Positions 6,001 to 9,000 of a DNA stretch of 40,798 nucleotides are shown here, in pieces. The position numbers were made by a program. The DNA comes from a virus (taxonomy: Duplodnaviria > Heunggongvirae > Uroviricota > Caudoviricetes), in IMG/VR virus record IMGVR_UViG_2634166457_000005, positions 1 to 40,798 of that record. One strand, written 5' to 3'. The first letter of the stretch is position 1. Each line of letters opens with the position of its first letter.

Positions 6001-9000
6001 TAAGCAAACTGCTGGAGCCATTGTTGTTTGCCGCTACCAGCGACAGCCAGTTAAGCAAAACGGAAATCAGTAGTATTAAGCTAAATAGTGAAACCATCCC
6101 GGTTTATCAGTTGCGCTATAACGGCAATAACGCCCTGATGTTCGCGACTTATCAGGACAAGATGCTGGTGTTTTCCAGTACGGATATGCTGTTTAAAGAT
6201 GACCAGCAGGATACCGAAGCCACGGCGATCGCAAGTGATTTGTTGAGCGGTAAAAAACGCTGGCAAGCCAGCTTTGGCCTGGAAGAGCGTGCTGCTGAAA
6301 AAACGCCAGTACGCCAGCGCATCGTGGTCAGCGCCAGGTTGCTGGGGTTTGGCTACCAGCGATTAATGCCTTCTTTTGCTGGCGTACGCTTCGAAATGAG
6401 CAACGACGGCTGGCATAGCTTTGTGGCGTTAAATGATGAATCCGCCAGCGTAGATGCCAGTTTCGATTTTACGCCGGTATGGAACAGTATGCCTGCCGGG
6501 GCCAGCTTCTGTGTGGCGGTGCCGTATTCGCATGGTATTGCCGAAGAGATGCTTTCGCACATCAGCCAGGAAAACGACAAGCTGAACGGGGCGTTAGATG
6601 GTGCAGCCGGGCTGTGCTGGTATGAAGACTCAAAATTACAAACCCCGCTGTTTGTCGGTCAGTTTGATGGCACTGCCGAACAGGCACAACTGCCTGGGAA
6701 ACTGTTTACGCAAAATATTGGTGCGCACGAAAGCAAAGCGCCAGAAGGTGTTTTGCCGGTAAACCATACTCAGCAGGGCGAAGCGCAAATCTGGCGTCGC
6801 GAAGTGAGTTCCAGATACGGCCAGTATCCGAAAGCGCAGGCGGCGCAACCAGATCAATTAATGTCGGATTATTTTTTACGCGTGTCGCTGGCGATGCAAA
6901 ACAAAACGCTGCTTTTCTCCCTCGATGACACGCTGGTTAATAACGCCCTGCAAACACTGAATAAAACCCGCCCGGCAATGGTGGATGTAATACCCACTGA
7001 TGGCATCGTTCCGCTCTATATCAATCCACAAGGCGTGGCGAAACTGCTGCGTAACGAAACGTTGACCAGTCTGCCGAAGAATCTCGAACCGGTTTTTTAT
7101 AACGCCGCACAAACTTTATTAATGCCGAAGCTGGACGCTTTATCTCAACAACCGCGTTATGTCATGAAGCTGGCCCAGATGGAACCCGGTGCCGCCTGGC
7201 AGTGGCTACCCATAACCTGGCAGCCGCTATGAGGCACGGACTGCTGGCGCTGATTTGCTGGCTGTGTTGTGTTGTTGCCCATAGCGAAATGCTGAATGTC
7301 GAACAGTCGGGGCTGTTTCGCGCCTGGTTTGTGCGCATTGCACAGGAACAGCTCCGCCAGGGGCCAAGTCCGCGCTGGTATCAGCAGGATTGTGCGGGCC
7401 TGGTGCGATTTACGGCGAACGAGGCGCTGAAAATTCACGACAGCAAATGGCTAAAAAGTAACGGTATAGCAAGTCAGTATTTGCCGCCTGAAATGACGCT
7501 AACACCTGAACAGCGTCAACTGGCGCAAAACTGGAATCAGGGGAACGGGAAAACCGGCCCCTACGTGACCGCGATTAATTTGATTCAGTACAACAGCCAG
7601 TTTATTGGCCAGGACATAAACCAGGCGCTGCCTGGCGATATGATTTTTTTCGATCAGGGCGATGCCCAGCACTTAATGGTCTGGATGGGGCGTTACGTCA
7701 TCTACCACACCGGAAGCGCCACGAAAACTGACAACGGAATGCGCGCAGTCAGTCTGCAACAACTTATGACATGGAAGTTGTATATTAAAAATTTCATTAA
7801 TTATCAATATGTTAATGTGCGCGGGTCATTATTAATCAAAATAAAACCATTATCATATTTCAATTTTGTCCCACTCCCGCCCGCGACTGTCCCTGTAACG
7901 CGCCGCCATTGAATCTGATTTATGCCCGAGAAGACGTTGAGCAAACTTATCGCCAATCTGATTCCGGTATAGCCTCGCCGACAGGCTGCGCAGTTCATGG
8001 AATGTTGGCGGGTCTCCATCAAATGAGAGTCCAGATGCATTTCTCGCCTTTGTAAAATACTTAGATACTGTTTTCGGGGAAAGCGGTTCGTGATGCGTTG
8101 ATGCAATTATTGTTTCACTGCCGCTGGCCTCCCTGCATTTCTGTAGTGTATCAGCCAATGAGATATTGAGCGCGTCAATCGTTAGCGTCAGCGGAATGGC
8201 GAGCTTAGCCCCTGTTTTACCCTGCTCAATGTGAAGATGGTTGTCGTTTATGTCTGACCATTTCATTCTGCATAAATCGCCTACTCTCTGCCCTGTAACG
8301 ACAGCCAAATCCATTGCCAGCCTCAGCCAGATTGGGAGCGGTTCGGCTGCATGGTAAATCGCGACATATTCATTAGCTGTCAGTCTTGAACGCCTTACTT
8401 CTGATTTTGCTGTGCGGGTTGCTGTTACCGGATTCGTAGCCACATGCCCCTCGGCTATTGCCTCACGAAAAACGTCAACAAGGGTTGACCTGATTAATTT
8501 TGCGGAAGCCGCTTTACCTTCTGCTACGTAGGTGTTTAGCATTGCTGCCACCTCTTTCGTTGATATGTCAGCGAGCGGTTTGTCCGGCAATTTTCTTCGG
8601 ATTGCCCTGATTTTGCTGGCGTAGTCGAGTAGAGTTTTCGGCCTGATACCCCTCTCGCTGAGGATTGTTTCATATCGGTCAAGCCACGCATGAAGAGTGA
8701 TTGCGTCAGCGCCTTTAATTCTGTCTATCAGTGACTCACGCCTGTTCCCGGATAGCAACTCAATATTGGCCTGTATTGCTTCAGTGATTGCTATCCTCCT
8801 GTCTCGGCCTAATCCGAACTCTTTACCCGTCCTTGGGTCCCTGTAGCAGTAATATCCATTGTTTCTTATATAAAGGTTAGGGGGTAAATCCCGGCGCTCA
8901 TGACTTCGCCTTCTTCCCATTTCTGATCCTCTTCAAAAGGCTACTTGTTACTGGTCGATTTAAGTCAACCTTTACCGCTGATTCGTGGAACAGATACTCT

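Follow-up and report, generated by a model that had tools for sequence, protein, structure and literature searches.

How does a lambdoid phage come to sit inside a conserved protein-coding gene, and what becomes of that gene and of the operon around it? The question is raised by the virus record IMGVR_UViG_2634166457_000005 (Caudoviricetes), whose positions 1 to 40,798 (hereafter the window) begin in Escherichia coli chromosome and pass into a prophage within the 3' end of yfaT. YfaT is the homologue of MagC in the periplasmic type II alpha-2-macroglobulin (Mag) complex, and its gene lies in the operon yfaA-yfaT-yfaS-yfaQ-yfaP. The insertion, proposed in an earlier note on this DNA, is real, site-specific and recurrent, and it splits the Mag operon. 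We regard the whole explanation argued here as very probable, namely an integrase-mediated, site-specific insertion into yfaT by a phage of the HK022 type whose attachment-site overlap has been retargeted, with YfaT inactivated and yfaS-yfaQ-yfaP uncoupled. [quoted passage not shown]

The insertion junction

The junction was located by megablast of window positions 6900-8200 against 5,426 complete E. coli genomes, with a rerun using 7300-9300. Matches were found in 5,397 of these genomes, and nearly all of them end at query base 878, which is window position 7777; 176 genomes match straight through the 7777/7778 junction, the best of them at 98.9%, so that none of the complete genomes is the source genome itself. 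A three-way alignment of the window with K-12 and E2863 puts the break directly 3' of ...ATGACATGGAAG, a site also given as ...CAACTTATGACATGGAAG, and the GC content is 53% in the host part of yfaT versus 21% in 7778-7852. The same junction is present in Shigella flexneri draft genomes. A junction shared by these drafts and by 176 complete genomes that were assembled independently is not an assembly artefact.

At the level of the gene, yfaA (5544-7232, plus strand; 562 aa; Pfam DUF2138, 952 bits) is intact and stands first in the operon, as in RefSeq relatives. An open reading frame (ORF) does run from 7202 to 7912 on the plus strand, where the earlier note had placed yfaT, and it appears in the mechanical ORF list; the gene itself is annotated in RefSeq relatives with the ATG of position 7229 as its start, in an ATGA overlap with the stop of yfaA, so that the chimeric YfaT has 227 aa and not 236. 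Codons 1-183 (7229-7777, plus strand) are host-encoded by alignment to K-12 and E2863, and 44 phage codons plus a stop follow on the same strand (7778-7912), the final 60 nt of the ORF being antisense to the 3' end of the integrase gene int. Native YfaT has 207 residues, of which 184-207 are swapped for the 44 codons of the phage arm. The insertion inside the 3' end of yfaT, the passage of the frame into AT-rich arm DNA and the phage-coded C-terminal tail thus stand as first described, and both a native C-terminus and an artefactual junction, which had been named as the grounds for abandoning them, are excluded.

One integrase and two attachment sites

To resolve the attachment site, the attL of the window was compared with the attB of K-12 and with the attR of two relatives that carry both ends of an element in yfaT, O111:H- 11128 and a cat isolate (NZ_CP148289); attP was then rebuilt from the window attL and the relatives' attR and aligned with HK022 attP. 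Cleavage positions within the core are inferred, with the layout of 7+7+7 bp described for HK022 attB, of which 5 bp each of B and B' suffice (PMC7736782). Comparison with the unoccupied locus, which the earlier note had advised, defined an 11-bp identity block, TGACATGGAAG (7767-7777), as the duplicated core common to attB, attL and attR. A search of the window for attR with the yfaT 3' end, allowing up to 3 mismatches, found none; attR is seen in the two relatives. The attL core, by alignment to HK022 attP, consists of B (CAACTTA, 7760-7766), the overlap O (TGACATG, 7767-7773) and C' (GAAGTTG, 7774-7780), and attB is a 21-bp site in codons 178-184 of yfaT, CAACTTA-TGACATG-GAAGGAC. The overlap TGACATG is identical in attB, attL and attR.

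In the rebuilt attP a C-O-C' core is flanked by a long P arm and a long P' arm. Its P' arm (75 bp at 7778-7852, 21% GC) is homologous to the HK022 P' arm and contains a block, GGTCATTATTAATCAAAATAAAACCATT (7823-7851), that aligns with arm-type Int sites. Against HK022 attP, both arms are homologous and the centre is replaced: the window phage reads CTCCTTC-TGACATG-GAAGTTG where HK022 reads ATCCTTT-AGGTGAA-TAAGTTG, and attB at torS, in the order B-O-B', is GCACTTA-AGGTGAA-AAAGGTT. Only one of the seven overlap positions is shared, whereas the Int-binding half-sites are alike at 4-6 of 7. The int stop lies 75 bp from the junction in the window, compared with 73 bp from the core in HK022 according to a published account that also places the classical HK022 attB at torS (PMC6814406). 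This attP shares its architecture with that of HK022 and departs from it in its overlap and in its C site; the target here is coding sequence of yfaT and in HK022 is the intergenic region between torS and torT.

The enzyme itself gives no such contrast. The int gene (7853-8920, minus strand) encodes a heterobivalent tyrosine integrase of 355 aa whose arm-binding, core-binding and catalytic domains are all recognized in Pfam (Arm-DNA-bind_1, PF09003, 100 bits; the SAM-like PF02899 and PF22022; Phage_integrase, PF00589, 141 bits). Its 5' end is overlapped by 23 nt by xis (8898-9116, minus strand), which encodes an excisionase of 72 aa (Exc, PF07825, 139 bits), the arrangement of lambda- and HK022-type integrase modules. 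In a gap-free alignment to a lambda-type Int all six catalytic residues (R212, K235, H308, R311, H333 and Y342 in lambda numbering) are conserved, within GQRVGD, KTG, FHELRS, GHKSD and RYRD. At positions 99, 282, 283, 287 and 319, which we take to be those that switch lambda specificity to that of HK022 in Dorgai et al. (1995), the window Int has D, P, K, K and R, as HK022 does, and the lambda-type protein has N, S, G, R and E. It is 98% identical to HK022 Int (7 differences in 355 aa) and 76% identical to lambda Int. By these marks the integrase is of the HK022 type and not of the lambda type; the earlier description of a lambda-like enzyme acting away from lambda attB was right about the site and wrong about the type.

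A closer comparison is offered by the Stx1a phages of O26:H11 (LC744181-LC744184), which sit at torS, use the HK022 attB with its AGGTGAA overlap and carry stx1a. Their int-xis DNA is 97.4% identical to that of the window over 1.8 kb; beyond int-xis, they have only scattered modules in common with the window phage. Over residues 1-355, the Int of LC744181, whose flank is torS, shows no amino acid difference from that of the window. The two genes differ at 8 of 1065 nt, all synonymous and all within the last 43 nt, the first 1022 nt being identical, which places the onset of divergence at the att module. The yfaT core of S. flexneri is the same, but its neighbours there, the distal P' arm and the 3' end of int, are HK022-like; the site chosen thus follows from the core only and not from the arm, and the case argues against the extreme C-terminus of Int as a determinant of the site. 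HK022 Int accepts an arbitrary overlap if it is identical in both partners (PMC7736782). Since strand exchange needs identical overlaps and HK022 Int takes any, this attP could be directed to yfaT without a change of protein, and the site change most likely maps to attP DNA and not to the enzyme. In the mechanism that we propose, replacement of the overlap would redirect attP from torS-torT to yfaT with Int unchanged, and an HK022-type Int would recombine the TGACATG-bearing attP into the 21-bp attB, leaving attL at 7760-7780. The right end in the source strain would then read ...CTCCTTC-TGACATG-GAAGGACACCCGATGG..., followed by a 75-nt yfaT stub and yfaS, and an excised circle would carry CTCCTTCTGACATGGAAGTTG as its attP.

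As to frequency, the yfaT junction occurs in 176 of the complete E. coli genomes and the torS junction in 193. The same junction after K183 is found on the divergent E. coli backbone of the window, in S. flexneri and in the lineage of O111, next to arms that are not the same, so that the gene has been disrupted repeatedly and independently at one position, as is looked for in regulated gene integrity and as a published survey also reports (PMC7192596). The host backbone of the window at 5544-7777 is unusually divergent from K-12 and O111 (proportion of synonymous differences, pS, about 0.10-0.12 for yfaA and yfaT). Because pS against O111 is about 0.11 while int differs from that of O111 at 0 of 1065 nt, the integrations must be independent. 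Judged by these genome counts, yfaT is not an occasional secondary site and is about as common as torS. Among 50,697 phage records no yfaT-type attP was found (best match 77% identical), and a pattern scan of IMG/VR for it returned HK022 and mEp235 only. A scan of genome contigs with an 18-mer of the P' arm gave nearly only chance hits, the one relevant hit, in E. whittamii, being of the torS type. Several genomes carry two or three copies of the int-xis module, and identical Int and Xis of one element could therefore act on another.

The two sites form a natural matched pair, with one Int protein and different overlaps, which shows how lambdoid phages can gain attachment sites without a change of enzyme. 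The principle of overlap retargeting is already used in genome engineering with HK022 Int. The saf mutants of lambda, attributed to Weisberg and colleagues in 1983, are said to have changes in the attP overlap that send an unchanged Int to sites with matching overlap; those are laboratory point mutants, while the attP of the window phage is natural, differs from HK022 at 6 of 7 overlap positions and is established at a primary site. In the papers that we read we did not find an HK022-type Int identical to torS-site Ints, or a site change mapped to the overlap, reported for yfaT, and the text of the TIGER supplements does not mention yfaT. Both are what published biochemistry predicts, and the att anatomy is a modest addition.

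Consequences for YfaT and the Mag operon

What does the insertion cost the protein? YfaT matches PDB entry 7BK8, 'MagC' (E = 1.8e-103), in an alignment that covers the lost C-terminal segment, and PF06672 (DUF1175) is now named MagC in Pfam; there is also a weak similarity to NlpC/P60. Native YfaT matches PF06672 from position 20 to 225 of 226 with 195.9 bits, the chimera from 20 to 202 with 153 bits, so that positions 203-225, 43 bits and the motif DTRWIP..NPNFIG.YRL.FL are missing. When 25 homologues (Enterobacteria, Pseudomonas, Aeromonas) are aligned, the lost segment proves to be among the best conserved of the family: D184, T185, R186, W187 and P194 never vary, and conservation reaches 90% or more at a further 12 positions (17 of 24 in all). 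Residues 196-202, inside the lost part, form a beta-strand in an AF2 model whose confidence is moderate (pLDDT 74). The phage tail has 3 aa (LHV) in S. flexneri, 25 in O111 and 44 in the window, and because it is unrelated to the native tail and variable in length, we read the event as a truncation and not as a replacement of the icd type. Phage 21 and e14, which integrate at icd, likewise use a tyrosine integrase to target a conserved protein-coding gene at its 3' end, but there the phage brings a replacement 3' end that keeps ORF length and function (PMC3603311). Nor does the arm look shaped to preserve yfaT, being homologous to that of HK022, which targets an unrelated site. The resemblance of 'NFI' and AATTTCATT was considered as a restoring tail and rejected as chance (local alignment score 19, mean of shuffled sequences 17-19, p 0.29-0.47). 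YfaT would thus lose its last 24 residues, with a beta-strand and the DTRW...NPNFIG.YRL motif, and gain unrelated codons of the AT-rich arm; judging from conservation, the chimera is most likely inactive or unstable.

A single-nucleotide polymorphism at 7854 (C in the window, G in O111, E2863 and the cat isolate) affects both genes at the junction. On the plus strand it exchanges TCA for TGA, giving a chimeric YfaT of 227 or 208 aa; on the minus strand it exchanges TGA for TCA, giving an Int of 355 or 356 aa. The shorter chimera, with 25 phage codons before its stop, is that of O111, E2863 and the cat isolate; the C at 7854 removes that stop. Public data contain other broken or fused forms of YfaT, interrupted near residues 143, 150, 167 and 186, as well as a form from Cronobacter that departs from the family sequence after TRWI. 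Decay seems to come easily to the Mag cluster.

The operon is tightly packed. [quoted passage not shown] The window has no contiguous Mag cluster: what comes after yfaA and yfaT is prophage, 33 kb of it or more. The claimed separation from yfaS-yfaQ-yfaP is borne out by comparing unoccupied K-12 with the two relatives that have both ends, and in relatives with the same junction the three genes lie 14-56 kb from yfaA-yfaT (the elements there range from 14.3 to 55.8 kb). In Pseudomonas aeruginosa, RsmA acting on the magA leader turns MagD off (PMC3735191), from which we conclude that magABCDEF acts as one unit there. Given that distance and the tight operon, yfaS-yfaQ-yfaP should be cut off from the upstream promoter, and the polarity proposed in the earlier note is a sound prediction. 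In our scheme, the homologues of magD, magE and magF would be moved tens of kb from the promoter upstream of yfaA, from which, by gene order, they are most likely not expressed in a lysogen.

Promoter and terminator scans of attR, the K-12 yfaT 3' end and the P' arm gave counts at or below shuffle expectation. In HK022 lysogens a P'-arm promoter reads outward across attL and drives torS (PMC6814406). The motif ATGACC-N18-GATAAT on the minus strand is conserved in the window arm (7829 to 7800) and in the HK022 arm; such matches are no commoner than chance. By analogy, a homologous promoter in the window arm may give antisense RNA into yfaT and yfaA. We put forward tentatively, as a plausible picture, the combination of one Int with two addresses through a swap of the 7-bp overlap (plus small core changes), a P'-arm promoter that would run antisense into yfaT-yfaA, and an uncoupled magD-E-F.

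Several observations weigh against loss of function by overlap-retargeted insertion. The attR is known from relatives, with none in the window sequence of the source genome, and the identity of Int is limited to residues 1-355, the extreme C-termini being different (EI*, EIS* and EIDK*). Constraint is not relaxed in what remains of yfaT, where the ratio of nonsynonymous to synonymous change (dN/dS) is 0.11-0.14 against 0.09-0.10 for yfaA, and yfaS, yfaQ and yfaP are still intact ORFs in both lysogens examined (O111 11128 and the cat isolate), which fits either a recent insertion or continued use. Deletion of magC in P. aeruginosa had little or an ambiguous effect on MagD (PMC5764988); the loss of YfaT may therefore matter less than the loss of the operon link. 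Finally, the distal genes may be expressed by phage read-through or from an internal yfaS promoter within the 98 bp that attR retains.

Some of these points also speak for a harmless integration, in which the last 24 residues are dispensable or the chimera works, yfaS-yfaQ-yfaP have their own promoter and no phenotype follows. The intact distal ORFs, the lack of a nonsynonymous excess in retained yfaT, the weak magC effect and the decay of the whole cluster in K-12, where yfaS is a pseudogene with no prophage present, so that selection on the cluster may be weak, all fit it. We nevertheless hold it unlikely, given a lost segment so conserved and containing a predicted strand, phage tails of 3 to 44 aa unrelated to the native one, gene spacing that leaves scant room for internal promoters (none emerged from the scans) and a published domain-disruption test that flagged yfaT (PMC7192596). 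A further account, regulated gene integrity or active lysogeny, would have controlled excision restore yfaT and the Mag operon at times of need, which would give the element an adaptive role as a reversible switch. Because the core is duplicated exactly, excision would be scarless, and with int and xis intact it would restore native yfaT and the operon. Mageeney et al. (2020) count yfaT among 19 new candidates (PMC7192596), HK022 sets a precedent by rewiring torS from the attL arm (PMC6814406), and int, xis and both att sites are retained even in the degraded 14-kb remnant of O111. Yet there is no evidence for regulated or non-lytic excision, the retention in O111 is equally explained by its nleA and nleG cargo, and the window copy resembles an ordinary inducible phage; we consider this account, which is compatible with the one we prefer, quite unlikely.

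It is very improbable that an ordinary torS-targeting phage of the HK022 type went off target into a secondary site. Such a phage would have the identical Int, and the B and B' sites of yfaT do resemble those of torS; what speaks against it is that the overlap shares one position in seven with HK022, that the C site at attR (CTCCTTC) is also different, that attL and attR carry the same overlap, and that the junction is as frequent as the torS one and is known, joined to differing arms, from three or more host backgrounds. A chimeric assembly or misjoin at 7777/7778 is negligible as an explanation, since the complete genomes with the junction come from many laboratories, the Shigella drafts share it and relatives have the matching attR with its duplicated core.

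Returning to the integration of a retargeted phage that inactivates YfaT and uncouples the distal genes, a parallel in effect is the Stx1 prophage in mlrA (yehV), which appears in the same survey as yfaT (PMC7192596). There too a conserved domain is interrupted and excision would restore the gene; unlike yfaT, which is known here from sequence, mlrA has a demonstrated restoration of phenotype upon excision. About 3% of complete E. coli genomes, those of O111 enterohaemorrhagic E. coli (EHEC) included, have a prophage or remnant at yfaT, often with nleA and nleG. Strains with such an element probably lack a working Mag system unless it is excised, and prophages carrying nleA and nleG would, if this is true, switch off a periplasmic defence complex in O111-type EHEC.

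The prophage and its relatives

The window holds the left 33 kb of the prophage (7778-40798), which runs off the end inside a phage tail gene and is colinear with the prophage at yfaT in the cat isolate. The latter, ridden with insertion sequences (IS), has a core-to-core length of 55,809 bp; most of the window is colinear with it, and it shares its right end with O111:H- 11128, the yfaT stub and intact yfaS, yfaQ and yfaP lying beyond. In O111:H- 11128 itself, the site holds a 14.3-kb remnant that has kept int, xis, nleG, nleA and a small number of late genes; a yfaT stub of 90 nt comes next, and then intact yfaS, yfaQ and yfaP. The size of about 40 kb given by the earlier note cannot be read from the window; if the absent right arm resembles that of the cat isolate, the prophage would be about 44 kb. 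In relatives, the attR end carries the type III secretion effector genes nleA and nleG (loci L003 34161-36710 and L004 13437-16100), nleA being the phage gene nearest to attR and pointing away from yfaS; the window ends before the corresponding region. Also in the P arm at the relatives' attR (L003 about 33700-33760) is a conserved hairpin, TTAGCGCAAG...CTTGCGCTAA, with a run of T after it when read in the direction of int. It occurs in HK022 as well (about 650-700) and resembles the tI/sib retroregulation element of lambda, and it lies apart from int in the prophage state.

Judged by its genes, the window copy looks like an ordinary inducible phage. On the minus strand it has N (15533-15934) and a CI-type S24 repressor (16608-17240), and Q lies at 23548-24321; further genes are those for SieB, CII, replication, nin, lysis, terminase, portal, capsid and tail. 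No stx was found in the portion of the prophage seen in the window, and there are no tRNA genes in the window. Prophages next to ybhC, at lambda attB, such as that of O145:H28 RM12761, share about 75% of window 7824-31900 at about 96% identity and carry a lambda-type Int with 76% aa identity to that of the window. By this comparison, the prophages at ybhC and those at yfaT are the product of an int-att module swap on a common phage backbone. A moron encoding a lipid A deacylase of the LpxR family (22199-23158, minus strand; Pfam LpxR, 137 bits) lies in a patch of 31-40% GC just upstream of Q, and many related prophages have LpxR too. The chromosomal flank, the left 7.8 kb of the window, comprises the 3' part of yfaL, ubiG on the minus strand and gyrA (2768-5395), before yfaA and yfaT.

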